From the sequence record OQ845958.1: a stretch of 64,000 nucleotides of DNA, one strand, 5' to 3'. Within the stretch, counting starts at the first letter, position 1; each line of letters starts with the position of its first letter. Under the pieces are notes generated by a model, which was given only the letters and a program-made list of their open reading frames with translations, was not told where the DNA came from and ran no database searches. Position numbers and translations under genes: made by a program. Shown piece after piece: positions 17,890-57,165 of this stretch. Source of the stretch: Escherichia phage pEC-M719-6WT.2.

Positions 17890-18097
17890 CAAACACCATG
17901 AAGTTGAAGAAGAAGCTTATAAAGAGCTTCAGAAACTGGTAGGTCAGAATATGTCTCCTGCTCTTATCAATAACCTGGCTGCACTGCGTAATGACATCAA
18001 CGAACGGTACAAGGGCGAATATTATGTTGAATTCGTTCCGCTGACTGAAGTCATTGACCGATTTATCGTTAATGTCAAGGTGCATACCGTCCATTAA
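17882..18097 (+). CDS. hypothetical protein (internal start of ORF-track 17813-18097)
   Basis: ATG overlapping the previous stop; 71 aa. Confidence 0.4.
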   Translation: MYNKHHEVEEEAYKELQKLVGQNMSPALINNLAALRNDINERYKGEYYVEFVPLTEVIDRFIVNVKVHTVH

Positions 18098-18122
18098 CGC
18101 TTTAAAAATTTTATGGTATAAT
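18098..18122 (+). promoter_or_regulatory. MotA-type middle promoter
   Basis: cGCTTTAA, 12 nt, TATAAT, then conserved leader GGGGTCTAGGTCC; same architecture as promoters at 36613 and 42618. Confidence 0.5.
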
Positions 18123-18168
18123 GGGGTCTAGGTCCTTTGGATACCCCGATAACTAAGCGAGAAAAGAA

Positions 18169-35570: not shown

Positions 35571-35582
35571 TATTTATAAATA
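35571..35582. promoter_or_regulatory. palindromic late promoter TATTTATAAATA serving divergent genes 51 (-) and 26 (+)
   Basis: TATAAATA readable on both strands within a 12-bp palindrome centred between the two start codons. Confidence 0.55.
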
Positions 35583-36223: not shown

Positions 36224-36613
36224 ATGAATATAAACAAAATGTATAGCGATGTATCTCCCGACTTATCTACAAGTTGGGATAAAGACGTTGCTAAAGTAAC
36301 TGGCGCAAGGTCTGTTAAGAACAGTCTTCTAGGAATAATCACCACAAGAAAAGGGTCACGGCCTTTTATGCCTGAATTTGGATGTGATATAAGTAATCAG
36401 CTTTTTGAGAATATCACACCGTTAATTACAGATACCATTAAACGCAACATCGTCTCCGCGGTGCGGAACTTCGAACCAAGAATAAGCAATCTACAGGTTG
36501 CAGTTGTCCCTATGTATGATGATAACTCCATTATCGTAACGGTTCAGTTCAGCATTGTTGATGACCCTGATACCCTCGAACAAATCAGGATTCAGCTAAG
36601 TCAAAACGGTTAA
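36224..36613 (+). CDS. 25: baseplate wedge protein gp25
   Basis: 129 aa; GIITTRKGSRPFxPEFGCD and SAVRNxEPRI match T4 gp25 from memory. Confidence 0.92.
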   Translation: MNINKMYSDVSPDLSTSWDKDVAKVTGARSVKNSLLGIITTRKGSRPFMPEFGCDISNQLFENITPLITDTIKRNIVSAVRNFEPRISNLQVAVVPMYDDNSIIVTVQFSIVDDPDTLEQIRIQLSQNG

Positions 36614-36638
36614 TGCTTTAATTTTATGGCTGTATAAT
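36613..36638 (+). promoter_or_regulatory. MotA-type middle promoter for uvsY
   Basis: aTGCTTTAA, 12 nt, TATAAT, then conserved leader GGTTCTAGACCC. Confidence 0.55.
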
Positions 36639-36666
36639 GGTTCTAGACCCTTACATTGGATACATT

Positions 36667-38621: not shown

Positions 38622-40117
38622 ATTTCCACCTGTTTAATTACATAGTTAAACCGTTCATCAGCATATCTTTGTATACGTTCAAGGCCATGCTTTAGGGCAA
38701 AGTTCAAATGAACATATTTCTTTTTAGCATTTGCCGATTTAGGTTTAACACCCATATCGTCAACGATATCAAAAACGTTTGCTTGTGATTTGGATTCATG
38801 TTTTCGAAGCACGCGGCCAATTGTCTGGAGTACAATTACCTTTGACTTGACCGGGTGAGCGAAAATAATATGATGGAGGTTTTTAACGGAAATACCCGTC
38901 GAGAATACACCGTATGAAGCTACAACAATAATTCCTTTTCCATTCTCTGCCATGACCTTTAATGCATTACGAGTTTCGGTATCAACTTCCCCGGAAACAT
39001 AATACACTTTCTCATGACCAGCTTCCTTAAGCATTTCAAACATCGATTTGCCATGCTCGATATTCTTAAACATCAAAAAGACGTTTTCATCTTTTTTAGC
39101 AAGCTTGAGAGCAAGATTTGTTACCCATTTATTTCGGCGTGTAGCTTTTGTAATTACCTTAATTTCATCCTGATAAGTTTTACCTTTCATTTTAACGGTA
39201 AATTCATCAGGGTAACGAAGGAAAATACTATTTATTTTAAGGTCAGTAACCTGTCCATCTTCCATCAATTTAGATGTGGATACTGGTTTAAAGATATCAC
39301 CAAACAGACCCATATATTGCATAAGGTTGGCTTTGCCGTCACGGAGTGAACCTGACAAACCAAATTTAAACGTACAATTCGTAAGGCCTTCGATAACCGT
39401 CGAAATTGATTTACCTGTCGCCATATGACATTCGTCATTCATAAACTGGCCAAACTGTTCAAACCATTCTTTAGGTTGTTTTACAGCCGTCTGATAAGTC
39501 GATACATAAATCATCGCATCAGAATCGCGTTTGGTACCAGAACGAATACCCAGACAAGCTTCACGAGGGAACAGACGATAATCAACAAAGTCATTAATCA
39601 TCTGGTCAACGAGCGCAGTTGTAGGAACAAGGATAAGTACTTTGCCTTCATAGTTCTCGAGATAATATCGCGCCAGAAGCGCCTGGATGAGACTTTTACC
39701 TGCAGACGTAGGTAAGTTCAGAATCTTTCTTCTGTTGACCAGACCATCATATACGGCGTCAGATTGATACCAATGGGGAGTTATCTTGGTATTGCCTGAA
39801 TAGATTTCTTTTGACTCGACCCATTTGTCGAATTCTTCGCGAGAGATTTCTTCTTTCTCTGTGATTTGTGGGTCAATCCAGAATGAATAGCCAAACTGGT
39901 CAGCGAACTTTTTAATTTGATTAACCAAACCGTATGGTAATTTACGATTGTAATCCAGGAGGCGGATTCGTCCGTCCCAAACTCCCTGCTTGAATTTTGG
40001 ATTGAAGCGATAGTTTTCAGCTTCGAAGCTGAAGTAATCACGGAGTTCGTAGAAGATTCCATCTTCACATTCAACATGCACGTGACTAAAATTTAGAAAG
40101 TTGATTTTAATATCCAT
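38618..40117 (-). CDS. uvsW: UvsW ATP-dependent DNA/RNA helicase (start at internal ATG; ORF track extends to 40156)
   Basis: About 499 aa from MDIKINF; helicase motifs NLPTSAGKS, DECH, GLSGSLRDGKA; matches T4 UvsW from memory. The ORF-track start lies upstream of the late promoter. Confidence 0.95.
   Translation of the reverse strand: MDIKINFLNFSHVHVECEDGIFYELRDYFSFEAENYRFNPKFKQGVWDGRIRLLDYNRKLPYGLVNQIKKFADQFGYSFWIDPQITEKEEISREEFDKWVESKEIYSGNTKITPHWYQSDAVYDGLVNRRKILNLPTSAGKSLIQALLARYYLENYEGKVLILVPTTALVDQMINDFVDYRLFPREACLGIRSGTKRDSDAMIYVSTYQTAVKQPKEWFEQFGQFMNDECHMATGKSISTVIEGLTNCTFKFGLSGSLRDGKANLMQYMGLFGDIFKPVSTSKLMEDGQVTDLKINSIFLRYPDEFTVKMKGKTYQDEIKVITKATRRNKWVTNLALKLAKKDENVFLMFKNIEHGKSMFEMLKEAGHEKVYYVSGEVDTETRNALKVMAENGKGIIVVASYGVFSTGISVKNLHHIIFAHPVKSKVIVLQTIGRVLRKHESKSQANVFDIVDDMGVKPKSANAKKKYVHLNFALKHGLERIQRYADERFNYVIKQVEI
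38622..38640. repeat. 19-bp direct repeat copy 2 (atttccacctgtttaatta), at the 3' end of uvsW
   Basis: Exact copy; both uvsW and the HNH protein end in the peptide KQVEI followed by stop. Confidence 0.85.
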
Positions 40118-40144
40118 GATGATTCCAAGGTAATAAATATATCT

Positions 40145-40152
40145 ATATTTAT
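40145..40152 (-). promoter_or_regulatory. late promoter (TATAAATA on minus strand) for uvsW
   Basis: Forward TATTTATA about 28 nt upstream of the uvsW ATG. Confidence 0.5.
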
Positions 40153-40171
40153 ACACTAACCGAGGTTCATC

Positions 40172-40837
40172 ATGATTGACAAGAACTACATTGAGGAAAT
40201 TCGTGTCCTCGAGAAAAAAGAAGCCAAAGAAAAATTAGCCGAATACGCAGCATCACTTGGCGTTGATGTTAAGAAAACAAAAACCTTTGATAATATGTTG
40301 GCTGACCTGGAAGCAGGACTTAAAGCATTTGCTGACATGCCTATGCCTGATGATAATGAAGGTCTGAGCATCACTGACCTTATCGATGCCGACGATGAAT
40401 TGTCAGGTGCTAAATTTGATGGCGATGAGTCAGCTAAAGAAGAAGCTAAACTCTTATTTGATGCTCCAACCGAAGCAAAGGTTGAAGTTGTTGAAATCGA
40501 AGAACCAGTTGTTTTGGTCGAAGAAGATGTTCCTTTTATCGAAGAAAAGTTCGAAGCAGCTGTTGCTAAGGTTGTCGAATCTGAAAAACCTGTATTTGCT
40601 CTGCCAAAAAACTTTAGTCCAAATCTTATGCTTATTGGCAAGAACCCTGGATTCTGTACTGTTCCGTGGTGGATTTATCAGTGGATTGCCGAGACTCCGG
40701 ATTGGAAAGAACGTCCAACTGCTTTCCCACATCCCACCGCGCATCAAACCCTATTCAGTTTGATTTATTACATCAATCGTAATGGGTCTGTTCTAGTACG
40801 AGAAACTCGTAACTCATCTTTTGTCACTTTAAAATAA
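40172..40837 (+). CDS. hypothetical acidic protein; possibly Inh-like (prohead protease inhibitor) by position
   Basis: 221 aa, highly acidic, adjacent to hoc as T4 inh is; no sequence memory to confirm. Confidence 0.3.
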   Translation: MIDKNYIEEIRVLEKKEAKEKLAEYAASLGVDVKKTKTFDNMLADLEAGLKAFADMPMPDDNEGLSITDLIDADDELSGAKFDGDESAKEEAKLLFDAPTEAKVEVVEIEEPVVLVEEDVPFIEEKFEAAVAKVVESEKPVFALPKNFSPNLMLIGKNPGFCTVPWWIYQWIAETPDWKERPTAFPHPTAHQTLFSLIYYINRNGSVLVRETRNSSFVTLK

Positions 40838-42611: not shown

Positions 42612-42617
42612 CCCTTT

Positions 42618-42654
42618 TTGCTTCAAATAAAAATGCGGTATAATGGTTCTAGAC
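42618..42654 (+). promoter_or_regulatory. MotA-type middle promoter upstream of rnlB
   Basis: tTGCTTCAA, 13 nt, TATAAT, then conserved leader GGTTCTAGACCC. Confidence 0.5.
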
Positions 42655-42741
42655 CCTTTGTGACTATTAATTCCTTTCAAAGAAAGAAAGTATAGCGGGT
42701 CTAATTTATAATGATATTTATAACATCAAAAGTGAGAGATT

Positions 42742-50274: not shown

Positions 50275-50522
50275 TATTCATCGTCCTCATCTTCATCATC
50301 GTCGCCTTCGTCAGCGTCATCAGATTCTTTTTTGTCTTTCTTTTCTGCTTTACCGTCTTCATCATCTTCTTTAGGCTCTTCGCCTTCAATCATGATGGAA
50401 CGTGCAATTTCAATCTTACGTTCTTCAATCAAACTACCGCATACTGGGCCAATGTTTTCAGCAAAATATTTGCGAACGGCTACGAGGTCGTTTGATTTAA
50501 TGGCTTCAAATAAATCATCCAT
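50274..50522 (-). CDS. 67: prohead core protein gp67
   Basis: 82 aa with acidic C-terminal tail; position after gene 20 as in T4. Confidence 0.75.
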
Positions 50523-52096
50523 TAGAAATCCTCTTCTTCTTCTTCAGGGTTTTGGAAACGAGCCTCTTTGGACTCCAATTCAATTTGCTTAGCTTCTTGA
50601 TTAATTTCTTCATCAGACATCTGGAGGAAGTCCTTCATAGCCGTTTGATGCGAAATATATTTACCGATAAACGGTTCAGCCATCGTTAGCATATTGATTC
50701 TGCGTTCCATGATTTCTGCGTCTTTCATTTCGGTGAAATAGCTATCACGGTTGAACGTAACTTTAATATTATTTAGTTCCTTTTCCCATTCCTCTTCTGA
50801 AATAATTTTTTTCAGGATAAGGTTGGTTTTAAGCGGGTCGAGGAAAACTTCTTCAAATTTATTCTGTAGCTGCCTAATCCATTTAGAGAAATTCAATTCA
50901 TCGCGAGTAATTGTCGCGCCCGCATCAAACATAACGCCGCTGTTTTGGTCATTAGGGATACGAGATAATGGAATTCGGAGAGCCTGATATAGGTTGTTCT
51001 TAAACCAGCGAACATCGTCCATATCCGACATGCCTTGTGCACCCGGGAGTGTATCAACTTCGGTGACTGCTTTACCATCACGACGTTGCAACCAATAGTC
51101 TTCTGTCATTGACATGTTGTGCTGTTGGTTTTTGATTTTACCCGTGGTTGCATCATATACGACACGGTTTTTCATCGTATTCATAATATGTTGCATGTGT
51201 GCTGCTGCTTTACGAGACGGCATATTTCCGGTATCGATATAAAAGACTCGGCGGTCTGGTGCACGAGTTATACGATAAATGACTAAAGCATCTTCTAATA
51301 GTTTTAATTGGTTTGCAGGTTTAATTGCTCGTTGTAAGTATCCGATGATATTCTTACCACAGCAATCGAGTAATCCCGAATGCGCATATACAATCGCCGC
51401 ACGAGGAATTTTTATTTTAGTACCTGCTTCATATATACGACCATCGGCACAATAACTTTCATGACCAGTATCGTATACAAAATATTCTCTGTAACCGTCG
51501 ACAATTTTTGTACCATTTTCCATGCGTGTAACGATTTCACGGATGAACTGGATTTGTCTTGGGTCAAGGCGACGAAGTTCTTGGACCCCATCTTTAAGTT
51601 TTGCTGGGTTGATAATTTTGTGGAAGAAAATTCGAGAATCCACATACCAACGTTTAAAGTGGTCAGAACCTTTACGCTCGAAATTAAGGAGGTTATTAAC
51701 TTCCGCGAATTCTTCAAGGATTCGGTCTTTAATTTTCTGACTAAATTCGGTAGCATCAAGATTAAGAGCTACAACATCTTTACCGTCTTCAAAAACGATA
51801 GCATCAGACACAATTTCTTGCACCGCGTTATCAACTTCATAATTATTTAGTAAGTTGCGGTAGGTGTCAATTAATTCCCTGGTATTTTTTACTTCAGGTT
51901 CATTACTCCCGAACATCTGTTGCATCAATGCATTATACGGGACGTTTTGTTCTTGTGACTCAATTTCGCGAGCCCCATCGTCAAACTTCGGCCCGGTCAT
52001 TGACTCTAAATTATTTTTTTCTTGTTGCTTATATTCTTGTTCATCTTCTTTAGCCCAAGGCTTAAGAAAATTTAGTATTGTGTTAAAACCTGCCAT
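50522..52096 (-). CDS. 20: portal vertex protein gp20
   Basis: 524 aa, same length as T4 gp20; late promoter upstream; synteny. Confidence 0.92.
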
Positions 52097-52153
52097 TAGA
52101 GTCTCCGAAGTTTGGGAAATGAGGCCGAAGCCTCATAATAACTTTATTTATAC

Positions 52154-52645
52154 TTATTCCCACCAGTCAATTGCGAACGTTGCTTCGAACGTTTCAATTT
52201 CGTTGTTACTGTCCCAATCCATCTGGACTTCCCCAACGTTGGTTGGCCACATGCCGGTAATAACAACTTCTTTCGTAACGGTCTTACCATCACGATGGAA
52301 CTGACGAACAGTAGCGGTTTTCTTATAATCAGCAGGAGCTGCACCGGTGATTTCGTTAGTCATACCGTGACACAGGTTTTGCCAATCAACAATTGCTTGA
52401 CGAACTTTATGAGCATCGTCGTTATAAATCGTAATAGTCCAGTCATCAAATGTACGGTCGCCCGCAACGTTGATTTTACGGTTCATGTAACCGACAGGAA
52501 CTTTTTCTACAATGCCAGCAGGCATCGGGGCTGCTTTACAATGGAAAGCAAAGTTTTTACCCAGGAATGGGATTTCGACTTCGAACAGGTTAGGGCGAGC
52601 AAAGTCGCCGGATTCGAAAGCGCGTGTGATATCGGTCAACTCCAT
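52154..52645 (-). CDS. 19: tail tube protein gp19 (start at internal ATG; ORF track extends to 52696)
   Basis: 163 aa from MELTDITRAFESGDFARPNLF, same length as T4 gp19; the ORF-track start abuts a TATAAATA late promoter and is unlikely to be translated. Confidence 0.93.
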   Translation of the reverse strand: MELTDITRAFESGDFARPNLFEVEIPFLGKNFAFHCKAAPMPAGIVEKVPVGYMNRKINVAGDRTFDDWTITIYNDDAHKVRQAIVDWQNLCHGMTNEITGAAPADYKKTATVRQFHRDGKTVTKEVVITGMWPTNVGEVQMDWDSNNEIETFEATFAIDWWE

Positions 52646-52697
52646 TAAGGAATCCTCTTTATAGACACAGGTCGCGCGAACGCGTCCCTGATGCATG

Positions 52698-52705
52698 TAT
52701 TTATA
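52698..52705 (-). promoter_or_regulatory. late promoter (TATAAATA on minus strand) for gene 19
   Basis: Forward TATTTATA about 50 nt upstream of the gp19 ATG. Confidence 0.5.
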
Positions 52706-52762
52706 CTAGGTAATATGATTCATCATCTCAAGATAACGGCTTCCCAGAATCAACTACAGGAG

Positions 52763-52813
52763 CCCGTAGAACCGATTATGCTTTTATTTATACCACTGTA
52801 TAATGGTTCTACG
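52763..52813. promoter_or_regulatory. promoter element inside a 10-bp inverted repeat, readable as a plus-strand middle promoter or a minus-strand late promoter
   Basis: CCGTAGAACC gatt aTGCTTTTA tttataccactg TATAAT GGTTCTACGG; reverse complement contains TATAAATA. Confidence 0.45.
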
Positions 52814-52849
52814 GTTTCTAACTGATTAATTCATTCTAAGCGATGATAA

Positions 52850-54829
52850 TTATTGTGGCCCAATCAGCTCATCAAAATCAGCACCAGTGCTAGTGGCTAC
52901 GAAGTTAAGAGTGATGTAGTTGATGCTGCGCGCAGGTTTAAAATAAATGCTAGCAACAAACTCATTTCGGTCTATGACCGACGGGGTGTTGTTAGTAGTA
53001 TCACAAACTACACGACCTTCATAAATGCCACCAAGTGCACGAATACCATCCAAGTATTGAGAAGTTTCCATACGGAATGATGCACGAGTGAAGTTATCGT
53101 TAAGCTCAAACAGTTTATATTTGGATGCATCACCGATATTTTTCTTCAGCATATTCGTAAGACGACGAACGTTAATATGGTCCATCGGAGATGGAACTTT
53201 AGTTGCAGTCTTATCACCATACAGAACAAAACCATCACCACCTGCGAAACCAACAACCGGGTTGATAGCTTCTTGATACATGCGGTCACGTTGGGTCTGA
53301 CGTGGTTCAACAGCCAATTTCAGAACGTTCAGAATCTGACCGCGGTTATAACCAGCCGGAGACATCCAAGGCTGAGAAACATCATCAGTACGAGCACACA
53401 GACCAGCCATATCAGCTGCCAGAGGAACCCAACGGTTAACGTCATTATATTTATCATACTGATATTTATAGTTGCCATCAATCGCTGCATAAGTCGTGCT
53501 GATATTCATGTTATCAGTATCAAATGCGCCAGCACCTGTACGCCAGTCAATCAGGTTATCCACTGCACGGGTCAGAGGAACGTTAACCAACAGACCTTTC
53601 GGCGGGGAAATAAATGCCAGACAATCCTGACGTTCGTCAGCAATAGAAACCACGTGTTTCTGAACAGTGGAAGCGGTTGCATCACCTTCACCAGCTACTG
53701 CACCAGCGATAAGCAGGTTAATATGCAGTGCTTCACGGTCAGCAAACAGGTCCCAACCTTGCATCAAATCACCAGCGGTAATCTTATCGTTTGCAGAAAT
53801 ACCACCAGACAGATTGATGATACCACTGAAGCCTGCAGGCCAGTTGCGAGATGTTGCATAGATGTAGTTGGAAGTACCTTTTGCAAAGTAGTCATCCAGA
53901 TAAATGTTATTACCGTAAACATCTTTTTCGCCCTGCTTGGTAGACAAAACAACGTTTTCGACGATTGCACCATCGCGGCGAACGATAATTGCATATTGGT
54001 TTTCAGACTGAGGACCATAGTTAAACACGGCACGAGCCACAGAAGCACGCGTTCCGCCGCCCGGGAAAATATTCAGATTTGCAGCTGCGCCTTTTTCAAA
54101 TTCAGCTTTAGATACGATTTCAACTTCCAGAGTAGAACCGATTTCGCCTGGATAAAGAGCAACAACACCTGGCATTGCATATTTTGCTAATGATGCCTGG
54201 AATTCCAGAGAAGTAATTGCTTCTTCACTGTTTTCTGCTTCAGTCAACAGAATTCCAGAATCGGTAACAATTTTCCCAACAGTGATGGTACCAGATACAC
54301 CAGAAGAAGTGGTTGTAACTTCCGCAGTCCATGCACTACCTAAATTAGGATACTGATTAATAGTTTTGGCAAATGCAATAATCTTATCGGTAGGAATAAA
54401 GATTGCCTGAATTTTACCATCAACGTCGACCTTGGTCACACGGCCAGCCGGTTCAACAACAGTCTGGTTGTGTTTAACCTGAATAACATCACCGACAGCA
54501 TAGTTTGTACCAGCAGTTACGATGGTAGTTTCAATATTGCCAGCAATAGGGGATGCGTTTTTAGCTTCGTCACGGTTAACAACACGTACAGTACGGAGGT
54601 CATTACCATATTGCAGGAAGTTCATCCCACTCATAAAGTAATCTGCTGTTTCATTATTCGGACCACCAAACAAATCAACAAGTTCAACTTCGTTTGTAAT
54701 TTGAGTTACCTGGAAAGCTGGGCCCCACTGGAATTTACCAACCAGCGCCGCACGACCCGTCGCGTTACGAACAACAGTGCTTTGTACCGTTGTTTCTTTG
54801 AGCTCAATGCCCGGGGATAATAAAGCCAT
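52850..54829 (-). CDS. 18: tail sheath protein gp18
   Basis: 659 aa, same length as T4 gp18; late promoter TATAAATA upstream (forward TATTTATA near 54868). Confidence 0.93.
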   Translation of the reverse strand: MALLSPGIELKETTVQSTVVRNATGRAALVGKFQWGPAFQVTQITNEVELVDLFGGPNNETADYFMSGMNFLQYGNDLRTVRVVNRDEAKNASPIAGNIETTIVTAGTNYAVGDVIQVKHNQTVVEPAGRVTKVDVDGKIQAIFIPTDKIIAFAKTINQYPNLGSAWTAEVTTTSSGVSGTITVGKIVTDSGILLTEAENSEEAITSLEFQASLAKYAMPGVVALYPGEIGSTLEVEIVSKAEFEKGAAANLNIFPGGGTRASVARAVFNYGPQSENQYAIIVRRDGAIVENVVLSTKQGEKDVYGNNIYLDDYFAKGTSNYIYATSRNWPAGFSGIINLSGGISANDKITAGDLMQGWDLFADREALHINLLIAGAVAGEGDATASTVQKHVVSIADERQDCLAFISPPKGLLVNVPLTRAVDNLIDWRTGAGAFDTDNMNISTTYAAIDGNYKYQYDKYNDVNRWVPLAADMAGLCARTDDVSQPWMSPAGYNRGQILNVLKLAVEPRQTQRDRMYQEAINPVVGFAGGDGFVLYGDKTATKVPSPMDHINVRRLTNMLKKNIGDASKYKLFELNDNFTRASFRMETSQYLDGIRALGGIYEGRVVCDTTNNTPSVIDRNEFVASIYFKPARSINYITLNFVATSTGADFDELIGPQ

Positions 54830-54861: not shown

Positions 54862-57165
<2,304 letters not shown>

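Follow-up and report, generated by a model that had tools for sequence, protein, structure and literature searches.

Opposed candidate middle and late promoters within a hairpin between tail genes 18 and 19 of a Gaprivervirus phage

Layout of the gene 18/19 spacer

The 64-kb window analyzed here, by which we mean the whole stretch of DNA, belongs to Gaprivervirus, a T4-type phage. Its minus strand carries the tail genes 18 and 19, and the spacer between them holds a short conserved island in which candidate promoters on the two strands overlap. The features of the locus are as follows, in order of position.

52154 to 52648, minus strand: gene 19 (tail tube), the late gene downstream of the island
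52668 to 52690, minus strand: hairpin with a UUCG loop, which folds at the 5' end of the late promoter 2 transcript (gene 19 leader)
52698 to 52705, minus strand: late promoter core TATAAATA no. 2, the proximal gene 19 promoter
52754 to 52769, minus strand: alternative small hairpin CUACGG-GCUC-CUGUAG, which reuses part of the 3' arm
52758 to 52817: conserved 60-bp island, containing the inverted repeat and both promoter cores
52764 to 52773: left arm CCGTAGAACC, the 5' arm on the plus strand and the 3' arm in sense late RNA
52776 to 52785, plus strand: MotA-box-like decamer TTATGCTTTT, a 9/10 match to wwwTGCTTtA
52792 to 52785, minus strand: late promoter core TATAAATA no. 1, in the hairpin loop, with a predicted start near 52779
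52799 to 52804, plus strand: sigma-70-type -10 hexamer TATAAT, 13 bp past the MotA box
52805 to 52814: right arm GGTTCTACGG, which doubles as the discriminator/start region of the plus-strand promoter
52811, plus strand: predicted start (A) of the orphan middle transcript, 7 nt past the -10 hexamer
52850 to 54829, minus strand: gene 18 (tail sheath), whose 3' end is the target of the putative antisense transcript

An earlier note, made from the letters of the window, had described an orphan promoter bracketed by a 10-bp inverted repeat in this spacer. The repeat is present, with arms that are complementary at 10/10 positions and 31 nt apart, although the span given for it, 52763 to 52813, is one base off. 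By itself, the repeat is no better than chance (seven perfect 10-bp inverted repeats with loops of 3 to 60 nt in the window, versus 5.8 +/- 2.4 expected from second-order Markov simulations), and its weight comes from conservation. The 51- to 71-nt stretch folds far better than shuffled sequences (z = -3.8 and -6.0 for the sense and antisense strands, respectively), and in this phage an inner pairing of ATTATGC with GTATAAT lengthens the stem inward. The core ATGCTTTTATTTATA-N6-TATAATGG occurs a single time in the window and found no match in 100 shuffles. Rfam covariance models gave no match on either strand of positions 52000 to 53600 at E-values up to 1.

No conserved ORF lies on the plus strand downstream of the middle-promoter match, which is thus an orphan, as the note had held: without a coding sequence ahead of it, it aims into the 3' end of gene 18. 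A 44-amino-acid plus-strand ORF at 52691 to 52825, a hypothetical protein in the UPEC07 annotation, was rejected as a gene because it meets a stop after 12 codons in the VR7-type lineage, as we read the alignment.

Promoter matches on opposite strands

Middle promoters combine a wwwTGCTTtA box centered near -30, a spacer of 12 +/- 1, and a -10 element (PMC2988021). On the plus strand of the window, TGCTTTTA at 52779 to 52786 is followed after 12 nt by TATAAT at 52799 to 52804, and the sole mismatch of the decamer TTATGCTTTT to the box consensus is a T in place of the final A. We scored this site with a position-weight matrix trained on 58 mapped T4 middle promoters. The MotA-type middle promoter previously read on this strand finds its counterpart in the 9/10 box, the 13-bp spacer, the perfect TATAAT, and a score of 17.1 bits, compared with a median of 16.1 bits for the 58 mapped promoters. 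The match ranks eighth on the plus strand of the window, and all eight sites that reach at least 17.1 bits lie on that strand, with none on the minus strand. The same threshold yields 24 matches on the early/middle strand of T4 versus 2 on the opposite strand and is reached by 23/58 known T4 middle promoters, a specificity that is flattered because the matrix was trained and tested on identical promoters. TGCTT-N13-15-TATAAT, for which 0.2 occurrences are expected, is found five times on the plus strand of the window and never on the minus strand. As uvsY and rnlB are plus-strand genes, the orphan match lies on the prereplicative strand.

The claimed likeness to the promoters of uvsY, rnlB, and ORF 18169 also withstands comparison. 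The stretch CTGTATAATGGTTCTA is common, letter for letter, to the orphan match and the uvsY promoter of this phage, and over the same stretch the rnlB promoter and the promoter at 18095 are almost identical to it. A -10/start module, GTATAATGGTTCTA, is common to the orphan, uvsY, and rnlB promoters of the window and is close to that of T4 PnrdC.7, while the start geometry TATAAT-N6-A also occurs at the mapped T4 PuvsY start. PnrdC.7 is similar in a further respect, in that both have mutually complementary box and -10 regions (AACC...TTATACCA / TGGTATAA...GGTT) along with the -10/start module TATAATGGTTCTA. The orphan match thus shares with the MotA/AsiA promoters of T4 the box, the 12 +/- 1-bp spacer, TATAAT, and the prereplicative strand. 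It differs from them in its last box position (T, not A), in its location in an intergenic spacer amid the large late-gene cluster, a region from which no middle promoter of T4 has been mapped, and in having a perfect 10-bp inverted repeat around it and an opposite-strand late promoter in its spacer.

The motA and asiA genes lie outside the window, and both MotA and AsiA are annotated in phage VR20, which is 97% identical at the locus. A scan of VR20 with the same matrix recovered the known orphan promoter P34i/oriG in gene 34, and across the 20 kb from gene 10 to gene 24 the element described here is the only antisense match of at least 15 bits. Among the 17 middle-promoter candidates of the window, it is also the only one within a strong hairpin.

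The earlier note had further proposed a second late promoter upstream of gene 19 in the same bases of the minus strand, and a TATAAATA core is indeed present at 52792 to 52785, in late-gene orientation and 144 nt ahead of the gene 19 ATG. Both promoter matches fall between the arms, so that the placement of either one inside a stem-loop agrees with the coordinates. The motif TATAAATA occurs 16 times on the minus strand and 4 times on the plus strand of the window. Perfect inverted repeats of at least 8 bp flank only two of the 16 minus-strand occurrences, this one and the one that precedes uvsW (40153). Positions 52691 to 52706, around late promoter 2, and 52778 to 52793 form a direct repeat (14/16), and the UUCG hairpin at 52668 to 52690 is identical between the window-type and VR7-type lineages. 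The gene 18/19 spacers of T4 and of Yersinia phages fHe-Yen9-01 and TG1 likewise contain two TATAAATA motifs, located at -135 and -57 in the Yersinia phages and at -144 and -57 in the window. In VR26, late promoter 1 is the sole TATAAATA read from gene 18 to gp19.1/gene 19. Judged by its motif and setting, the minus-strand TATAAATA at 52792 to 52785 is very likely an active late promoter.

Activity of the plus-strand element is open to several objections. None of the mapped T4 middle promoters falls in the part of the genome from 75 kb to 110 kb, so the locus is without experimental precedent; the MotA-like match is possibly in part a by-product of the inner-stem pairing ATTATGC/GTATAAT; and the GCAT that follows late promoter 1 recurs after late promoter 2. 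The last two points, together with the absence of a middle promoter from this locus in T4, also favor a reading in which only the sense-strand features work. The late promoter would then sit in the post-gene 18 hairpin and the MotA-like match would be a silent by-product, with the -10 hexamer and the 5' half of the box simply forming the two halves of an A+T-rich, palindromic inner stem. A hairpin followed by, or formed around, TATAAATA is in fact the general spacer design across Straboviridae, and a promoter inside the stem is also found in Yersinia phages fHe-Yen9-01 and TG1 and in Acinetobacter phage Acj61. Should the middle promoter be silent, what is left is an ordinary late promoter within the usual post-gene 18 hairpin. 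However, the wrong strand has almost no matches at this score, and the comparison with relatives below also speaks against this reading, which we consider unlikely. In our assessment, the plus-strand element is likely an active middle promoter.

Conservation of the island amid replaced flanks

Between the window and the VR7-type lineage, 57/62 aligned columns of the island match, compared with 17/37 in the left spacer and 24/37 in the 32 nt to the right. Just three columns vary among 16 copies of positions 52779 to 52817. Position 52793, in the promoter spacer, takes all four bases, while the box and the -10 hexamer are conserved; the decamer TTATGCTTTT is kept in all Gaprivervirus copies, VR26 included. 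VR26 has lost the arms, the left one by deletion, and has a different GC hairpin directly after gene 18, yet it retains the core (29/31 identical, with unrelated flanks). The -10 hexamer occupies the same spacer position in Gaprivervirus, in Dhakavirus (as TGGTATAAT), and in Marfa-like phages. Equivalent antisense sites at the homologous position score 20.0 to 20.6 bits in Dhakavirus and 17.0 to 18.8 bits in Marfa-like Klebsiella phages; the T4 gene 18/19 spacer has no antisense middle promoter, its best score being 9.7 bits. Dhakavirus brackets the site with different complementary arms (CCCAGGC/GCCTGGG), and the Marfa-like phages bracket it with CCTACCGG/CCGTAGG and a 14-bp inner stem.

This pattern is not what a silent by-product of sense-strand features would lead us to expect. 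Dhakavirus and the Marfa-like phages keep a high-scoring antisense promoter without TATAAATA at that spot. A 2-nt insertion in the VR7-type lineage abolishes the sense-strand inner stem but leaves TATAAT and TGCTT unchanged, and both the box and the -10 hexamer persist in VR26, which has no sense-strand hairpin at all (-1.9 kcal/mol).

In relatives, optional ORFs of the gp19.1 family are inserted beside the island, on its right side in VR7, RZ, DK-13, TH57, and DCP80 and on its left side in VR26. Their only assignment is to PHROGs phrog_5104 (function unknown); searches of gp19.1 against Pfam, NCBIfam, and the sequences of solved structures, and of the family profile against the T4 Mob/Seg proteins, gave nothing significant. 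We considered a homing endonuclease, as the C-terminus (YQLDHK/I...NL...W.xN..K) looks HNH-like by eye, and rejected it when the searches gave no support. gp19.1 is an optional and probably mobile ORF, and the locus illustrates a core that survives repeated insertion of optional genes around it.

The island could be regarded as a recombination cassette of the PeSL/PmSL kind (Arbiol 2010; Comeau 2014), a patch of homology for swapping optional genes such as gp19.1. Like these cassettes, it is a conserved short motif with a stem-loop and a Mot-box variant, at junctions with optional ORFs: Comeau et al. report stem-loops with promoter motifs, a Mot-box version included, at indel junctions (PMC4122927). 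Here, the core is common to three lineages while the DNA on one or both sides is unrelated; the insertion of gp19.1 ORFs to its left or right and the replacement of its flanks are as expected of a junction. However, PeSLs are multicopy and dispersed in hyperplastic regions, whereas this core is single copy in the window and in every genome searched and lies in the conserved structural core of the genome. In a PeSL, the stem-loop precedes the promoter; here, it surrounds the promoter, and the optional ORFs are on the strand opposite to the promoter. The insertion junction of the VR7-type lineage also falls approximately 25 to 35 bp to the right of the arms, outside the core. A role in recombination would be compatible with promoter function, but as the explanation of the island it is quite improbable.

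No further loci of the core were found in IMG/VR viral contigs, and it occurs at one place per phage record. A metagenome scan for the core returned 37 matches, 36 of which were dismissed as unrelated A+T-rich DNA, leaving a single homologue, contig L054. The only new match in a search for the arms (L022) falls within coding sequence of an unrelated contig of 14.8 kb and was set aside as a coincidence. Amplification of T4 genes 17-18 reportedly involves homology between gene 16 and gene 19; a search for such homology gave only short imperfect repeats in the window and nothing convincing in T4, and the idea was dropped.

The arms could instead form a palindrome to which a dimeric protein binds, occluding both promoters; this protein would be either a regulator or the gp19.1 product acting as an I-TevI-like autorepressor or at its homing site. 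The arms are perfect and invariant, their centers are 41 bp (about four helical turns) apart with the two promoters between them, and the intron endonucleases of T4 recognize operators overlapping the late promoters of their own genes (PMC2988022). Yet the arms are identical in genomes with and without gp19.1, the half-site occurs elsewhere in the window only as scattered one-mismatch matches, and profile and structure-sequence searches confirmed no nuclease or DNA-binding domain in gp19.1. In other genera the arms are unrelated, a difference more readily explained by a structure than by a binding site. We regard protein binding at the arms as highly improbable.

The hairpin and its enclosed candidate promoters

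The arms are unchanged in every aligned Gaprivervirus copy that has them, while the flanks are replaced. The sole variant is a right arm of GATTCTACGG in contig L054, which keeps a U.G pair in the sense RNA and leaves a C.A mismatch in the plus-strand RNA. This variant favors minus-strand folding, whereas the inner stem, through a G.U pair, favors folding of the plus strand, so that the two observations point to different strands as the one that folds. As the arms show no variation in Gaprivervirus, they offer no base-by-base covariation. The stem is followed by GCUCCUG on the sense strand and by only UUUC on the antisense strand, neither of which makes an intrinsic terminator, and a terminator scan of the repeat gave no call; lacking a sense-strand U tract, the hairpin is not a classical terminator. 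The alternative hairpin at 52754 to 52769 could form only without the 5' arm, and we give it low weight because in the VR7-type lineage this flank is replaced and the hairpin is not kept.

The large majority of surveyed spacers have a hairpin after the gene 18 stop. In Straboviridae, a stable hairpin after this stop typically has TATAAATA after or overlapping it, and T4 has two such units. The first TATAAATA of fHe-Yen9-01 and TG1 is located inside the hairpin, as it is in the window; phiR1-RT shares 96.6% identity in this region. The Gaprivervirus version differs from other Straboviridae spacers in that its 31-nt loop adds the antisense promoter, and its arms are not GC-rich and have no U tract.

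Late promoters inside RNA hairpins are known for genes e and soc, I-TevI/II/III, segB, and Aeh1 mobE, and with TATAAATA inside the stem-loop, read-through RNA can fold while RNA started internally lacks the 5' arm (PMC2988022, PMC3014915). The position of TATAAATA within the hairpin is the same here. In contrast to these cases, the 3' arm (GGUUCUACGG) contains neither a ribosome-binding site (Shine-Dalgarno) nor a start codon, the gene 19 AUG being 116 nt further on, and the nearest short frames are not conserved. Translational unmasking thus does not apply, as the 3' arm masks no start and no conserved ORF begins nearby. uvsW in the same window (40153) is a textbook case of the e/soc type, with its ATG in the 3' arm.

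Matches at the sequence level, along with their strand specificity and pattern of conservation, are the basis on which we infer promoter activity, start sites, and an RNA-level role for the hairpin. The reading that we prefer, with a probability of roughly 55%, is that two divergent, overlapping promoters of different temporal class lie within the post-gene 18 hairpin. The first would be a MotA/AsiA-type middle promoter (box at 52776 to 52785, -10 at 52799 to 52804, start near 52811) that serves no ORF and is the evolutionarily oldest part of the island. Its noncoding transcript would run antisense to the 3' end of gene 18 or, in relatives that carry gp19.1, to the 3' end of that ORF. The second would be a gp55-type late promoter, TATAAATA, located within the spacer of the middle promoter and acting as the more distant of the two gene 19 late promoters. 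As the middle promoter and this late promoter physically overlap, they would be usable only at different times. The inverted repeat would be the local form of the post-gene 18 hairpin found in all relatives, forming in late sense RNA that arrives from upstream, probably as a barrier that protects or defines the 3' end; RNA started at either internal promoter would have just one arm. That the hairpin is selected at the RNA level has, in our estimate, an even chance of being right.

T4 middle promoters almost always serve genes, and the best-known exception is P34i, which is the replication origin oriG. The orphan promoter described here would be a second such case, conserved in three genera, amid the largest late-gene block, and without a T4 counterpart. 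Its orphan status, its conservation in three genera, and its absence in T4 make it a testable candidate for either a new origin or a regulatory antisense transcript ("anti-late" RNA) directed at the most abundant tail protein. If both promoters are active, one 30-bp stretch would be readable on opposite strands by two differently reprogrammed forms of the host RNA polymerase.

Within this reading, the orphan transcript may be a replication primer or an antisense RNA. The element might go further and form the core of an R-loop origin of the oriF/oriG type, in which untranslated RNA hybridized to the template primes the leading strand early. Like P34i, the orphan promoter points antisense into a late structural gene without an ORF downstream, and it is kept in three genera without a coding target. 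In the T4 record, the primer RNA of oriG lies opposite late gene 34 and that of oriE is annotated as complementary to the transcript of late gene 5, in both cases the same anatomy as here, and early synthesis in T4 begins mostly in late-gene regions. The T4 origins that can be tested on plasmids consist of a MotA-dependent promoter and a downstream unwinding element (PMC3016281). The 110 bp downstream of the orphan promoter, however, are not unusually meltable: the least stable 51-bp segment has a dG of -59.9 kcal/mol (91st percentile of the window), whereas the uvsY promoter is at the 97th percentile and most other middle promoters lie between the 97th and the 100th. The downstream sequence also varies, being the gene 18 end here, gp19.1 in the VR7-type lineage, and another hairpin in VR26. 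VR20 already has homologues of the oriG and oriF promoters, and no T4 origin has been mapped near genes 18/19. On these grounds, an R-loop origin appears unlikely. In its fuller form, Gaprivervirus, Dhakavirus, and Marfa-like phages would possess a gene 18/19 origin absent in T4, with a MotA-dependent primer RNA antisense to gene 18, and in Gaprivervirus the late promoter and the hairpin would take over this DNA for gene 19 once middle transcription stops; we regard this scenario as distinctly unlikely.

Probable promoters on both strands of the gene 18-19 spacer

The 52100-53000 region shares 99.4% identity with Escherichia phages TH22, TH55, and UPEC07 and 94-97% identity with VR20, VR25, and SP18, all members of the genus Gaprivervirus (Tevenvirinae). 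With the late genes carried on the minus strand, the plus strand corresponds to the early/middle transcription strand of T4-type phages.

Features of the locus
50522-52096, minus, gene 20 (portal)
52154-52648, minus, gene 19 (tail tube)
52705->52698, minus, proximal gene 19 late promoter TATAAATA
52764-52773, left arm of the inverted repeat, CCGTAGAACC
52776-52785, plus, MotA-type box TTATGCTTTT
52792->52785, minus, predicted distal gene 19 late promoter TATAAATA
52799-52804, plus, -10 hexamer TATAAT, 13 nt after the box
52805-52814, right arm of the inverted repeat, GGTTCTACGG
52850-54829, minus, gene 18 (tail sheath)
54862-56694, minus, gene 17

An earlier note had observed an orphan promoter bracketed by an inverted repeat here; the observation is confirmed, and its interpretation finds support in the sequence and in comparisons. 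As read from its sequence, the island (52758-52817) combines known kinds of element: an intercistronic hairpin and, with it, a late promoter and a middle promoter of the T4 type. What is unexpected is a predicted orphan antisense middle promoter inside a late-gene block, kept in three genera.

To score the plus-strand element, we made a two-block weight matrix from the 58 experimentally mapped T4 middle promoters listed by Hinton (PMC2988021), extracted from the assembled T4 genome. The element scores 17.1 bits, against a median of 16.1 bits for the known T4 promoters, and ranks eighth among all plus-strand positions in the window, while no minus-strand position reaches 17.1 bits. At this threshold, T4 gives 24 hits on its early/middle strand and 2 on the other, with 23 of the 58 known promoters at or above it, a specificity somewhat flattered because the matrix is tested here on its own training set. 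Simple pattern counts are similarly lopsided: TGCTT-N13-15-TATAAT occurs five times on the plus strand of the window and never on the minus strand (0.2 expected), and GCTT-N13-15-TATAAT occurs 12 versus 2 times. With CTGTATAATGGTTCTA as its -10 and start module, the element agrees exactly with the uvsY promoter of the window (36611), almost exactly with the rnlB promoter (42616), and more loosely with mapped T4 PnrdC.7 (GGTATAATGGTTCTAAG) and PuvsY; by this likeness, transcription is predicted to start at the A at 52811. Score and module both favor the proposed MotA-type middle promoter, and MotA and AsiA are encoded by VR20.

One -10 and start module, GTATAATGG(T/G)TCTAG(A/G)(C/T)CC, recurs in the strongest middle promoters of the window, all on the plus strand (uvsY, 36611-36660; rnlB, 42616-42665; and 18095-18140). 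It reaches far past the hexamer and resembles T4 PnrdC.7 and PuvsY, which suggests a subclass of middle promoters with conserved start-region sequence. In the divergent gene 34/rnh spacer, a minus-strand TATAAATA (1629->1622) abuts a plus-strand MotA-type promoter whose box begins at 1628; this stretch (1622-1655) represents ordinary back-to-back late and middle promoters, each serving a gene.

The promoter was described as having no plus-strand gene downstream, and no conserved ORF follows it. A 44-aa plus-strand frame (52691-52825; a hypothetical protein in UPEC07) was rejected as a gene: it starts upstream of the promoter, spans the island, and, by our own reading, is cut short after 12 codons in VR7-type phages, an interruption that makes it probably an annotation artefact. 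In Yersinia phage P8, too, a hypothetical protein is annotated where the spacer matches.

On the minus strand, the distal TATAAATA of the second late promoter predicted before gene 19 is likewise present. This motif occurs 16 times on the late-gene strand of the window and 4 times on the opposite strand. In T4, TATAAATA in replicating DNA is essentially enough for a late promoter, and we therefore rate the distal copy as very probably active. The two late promoters lie in a direct repeat matching at 14 of 16 positions (52691-52706 and 52778-52793, ATGC(A/T)T(G/T)TATTTATAC), so the distal promoter may have originated within Gaprivervirus by local copying of the proximal one. The homologous T4 spacer carries two units, each a hairpin plus TATAAATA. 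Late promoters lie at -135 and -57 in Yersinia phages fHe-Yen9-01 and TG1, compared with -144 and -57 in the window, and phiR1-RT is 96.6% identical over the Yersinia stretch. The first of these Yersinia promoters sits within a hairpin, as does a late promoter in Acinetobacter phage Acj61.

The inverted repeat and its conservation within Gaprivervirus

The 10-bp inverted repeat of the earlier note is real, with arms complementary at 10/10 positions and 31 nt apart, but its coordinates were one base low. As had been claimed, both promoters fall within the stem-loop: the box, the TATAAT, and the distal TATAAATA all lie between the arms. An inward extension of the stem (ATTATGC/GTATAAT) is possible, and a 71-nt stretch folds at -20.2 kcal/mol (z = -3.8) as sense RNA and -25.9 kcal/mol (z = -6.0) as plus-strand RNA. 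Perfect 10-bp inverted repeats with loops of 3-60 nt number 7 in the window versus 5.8 +/- 2.4 in second-order Markov simulations; the repeat alone is thus unremarkable, and the element must be judged by what it contains and by how it compares with related phages. Perfect inverted repeats of at least 8 bp surround 2 of the 16 late-promoter motifs, distal gene 19 (z = -3.4) and uvsW (40153, z = -2.9), and a third motif, at 35578, also folds (z = -2.3). Only the gene 18/19 element, among 17 middle-promoter candidates, has a strong hairpin around it (z = -5.9).

We aligned the window with 15 relatives and added a metagenomic copy, L054, for column counts. Against the VR7 type (VR7, RZ, DK-13, TH57, and DCP80), identity is complete over the proximal gene 19 promoter region (81/81), the next 32-37 nt are unrelated (17/37), the island is conserved again (57/62), and the 32 nt beyond it match at 24/37. 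Positions 52779-52817 contain three variable columns only across 16 copies; within the promoter spacer, 52793 takes all four bases and 52796 is C or T, and the third column is a right-arm substitution in L054. A 2-nt insertion between box and left arm in the VR7 type removes the sense-strand inner stem ATTAT/ATAAT, with AUGCU/AGCAU pairing instead, and leaves the TATAAT and TGCTT strings intact. In VR26, the left arm is gone, the right arm is mutated, and the sense strand is unfolded (-1.9 kcal/mol), yet the core TTATGCTTTTATTTATA-N6-TATAATGG keeps 29/31 positions between flanks that do not align; its TATAAATA is the sole copy read between gene 18 and gp19.1 (an optional ORF of this spacer)/gene 19. 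Box and hexamer are thus retained with or without pairing, which points to their use as specific sequences and not to a by-product of structure.

A gene 18 stop followed by a stable hairpin is found in the great majority of spacers surveyed. Different arms flank the antisense promoter in Dhakavirus (CCCAGGC/GCCTGGG) and in the Klebsiella phage Marfa group (CCTACCGG/CCGTAGG plus a 14-bp inner stem), and VR26, its arms lost, has a separate GC-rich hairpin directly 3' of gene 18. Our conclusion, of moderate confidence, is that the repeat represents this post-gene-18 hairpin in its local form and acts in late sense RNA from upstream; RNA started at either internal promoter would contain one arm only. 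No U tract lies 3' of the repeat, so the hairpin would be a barrier protecting or defining a 3' end, not a terminator. Evidence on which strand folds is mixed, and base-by-base covariation is absent. The single G-to-A change in the L054 right arm gives a U.G pair in sense RNA and a C.A mismatch in plus-strand RNA.

An 8-bp inverted repeat, CATGATGA/TCATCATG (40114-40173), has the uvsW late promoter (minus) in its loop and the uvsW ATG in its 3' arm; its 5' arm, on the opposite strand, shares bases with the start of the divergent inh gene. This is the classical T4 arrangement, in which the start of translation is masked in read-through RNA (PMC2988022, PMC3014915). In contrast, the 3' arm of the gene 18-19 hairpin has neither a ribosome-binding site nor a start codon, and translational masking is therefore not applicable there.

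Two other inverted repeats were noted in the window. A 14-nt inverted repeat (93% complementary) pairs 52745-52758, left of the island, with 52915-52928 in the 3' coding end of gene 18, enclosing the island and the gene 18 stop; a T-to-C variant common in relatives preserves a wobble pair in its sense RNA, and the repeat may be due to chance. Within the gene 17 coding sequence, about 60-110 nt past its start, 17-nt arms (56582-56598 and 56622-56638) are 88% complementary around a 23-nt loop.

The predicted antisense promoter beyond the genus and its possible roles

In 79 loci around gene 19 homologues (IMG/VR) and several annotated genomes, we scored each spacer between genes 18 and 19 on its antisense strand.

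Best antisense sites in the gene 18-19 spacer
Gaprivervirus: 16.0-19.9 bits
Dhakavirus (WG01, L075-L079): ACGCTGTA, 13 nt, TGG-TATAAT-GGTTTTAGG; 20.0-20.6 bits
Klebsiella phage Marfa group (L088, L091): TATTGCTAAA, 13 nt, TATAAT; 17.0-18.8 bits
T4: best spacer site, 9.7 bits
Remaining genera: all 9.3 bits or below

The Dhakavirus site closely resembles T4 PnrdC.7. Gaprivervirus, Dhakavirus, and the Marfa group can be aligned over sense-strand CATTATAC followed by AGC, which indicates that the antisense site probably derives from a common ancestor; TATAAATA is absent at this spot in Dhakavirus and the Marfa group. A CGTAG string adjoins the promoter in all three groups on differing sides: 3' of it on the sense strand in Dhakavirus (L075-L079) and the Marfa group (L088/L091), and in the 5' arm in Gaprivervirus (52764-52769), with its complement in the 3' arm.

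The known orphan promoter P34i (oriG) served as a control: the scan finds it in VR20 gene 34, at an offset of 2262 nt (19.0 bits) versus 2238 nt in T4 (21.0 bits). P34i/oriG of VR20 (L018) is conserved almost base for base with T4: ATTTGCTTCAAGAATATTCAGCGTATAATGGTCCCAGA. Across the 20-kb late block of VR20 (genes 10-24), no antisense site other than the gene 18/19 element reaches 15 bits, and the T4 middle promoter list has none between 75.4 kb and 109.8 kb (PMC2988021).

The closest precedents for an orphan transcript are the T4 origins. OriF and oriG each consist of a MotA-dependent promoter and a downstream unwinding element (PMC3016281). In the annotation of the T4 record, the primer RNA of oriG runs opposite late gene 34, and that of oriE is complementary to the transcript of late gene 5. 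The orphan promoter may belong to an origin of the oriF/oriG type. Against this, the 110 bp downstream reach only the 91st percentile for ease of melting, whereas uvsY and most other middle promoters reach the 97th-100th, and the DNA downstream varies by lineage. Alternatively, the transcript could be an antisense RNA to the gene 18 3' end, or to gp19.1 where present.

The gp19.1 family (201-227 aa; PHROGs family phrog_5104) occupies the spacer in several relatives and genera, between gene 18 and the island in VR7-type phages and, as a 36%-identical homologue, between gene 19 and the island in VR26 and Serratia phage LC53. Acinetobacter phages and a Dhakavirus (L075) carry additional homologues.

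Positions of gp19.1
RZ: L001 2242-2847
VR7: L004 1393-1998
VR26: L003 2050-2733
LC53: L060 617-1300
Other loci: L075, L090, L096, L099
Counterpart of the gp19.1 site in the window: 52818-52849

By eye, a YQLDH...NL...N..K motif at the C terminus of the protein recalls HNH, and a CxxC...CxxC motif is also present; the protein has no significant match in Pfam, NCBIfam, solved-structure sequences, or T4 Mob/Seg, and profile searches did not bear out the HNH likeness. Like the PeSL/PmSL cassettes of Arbiol and Comeau (PMC4122927), the island keeps its regulatory core between swapped flanks; unlike them, the core is single-copy, and its stem encloses the promoter rather than lying 5' of it.
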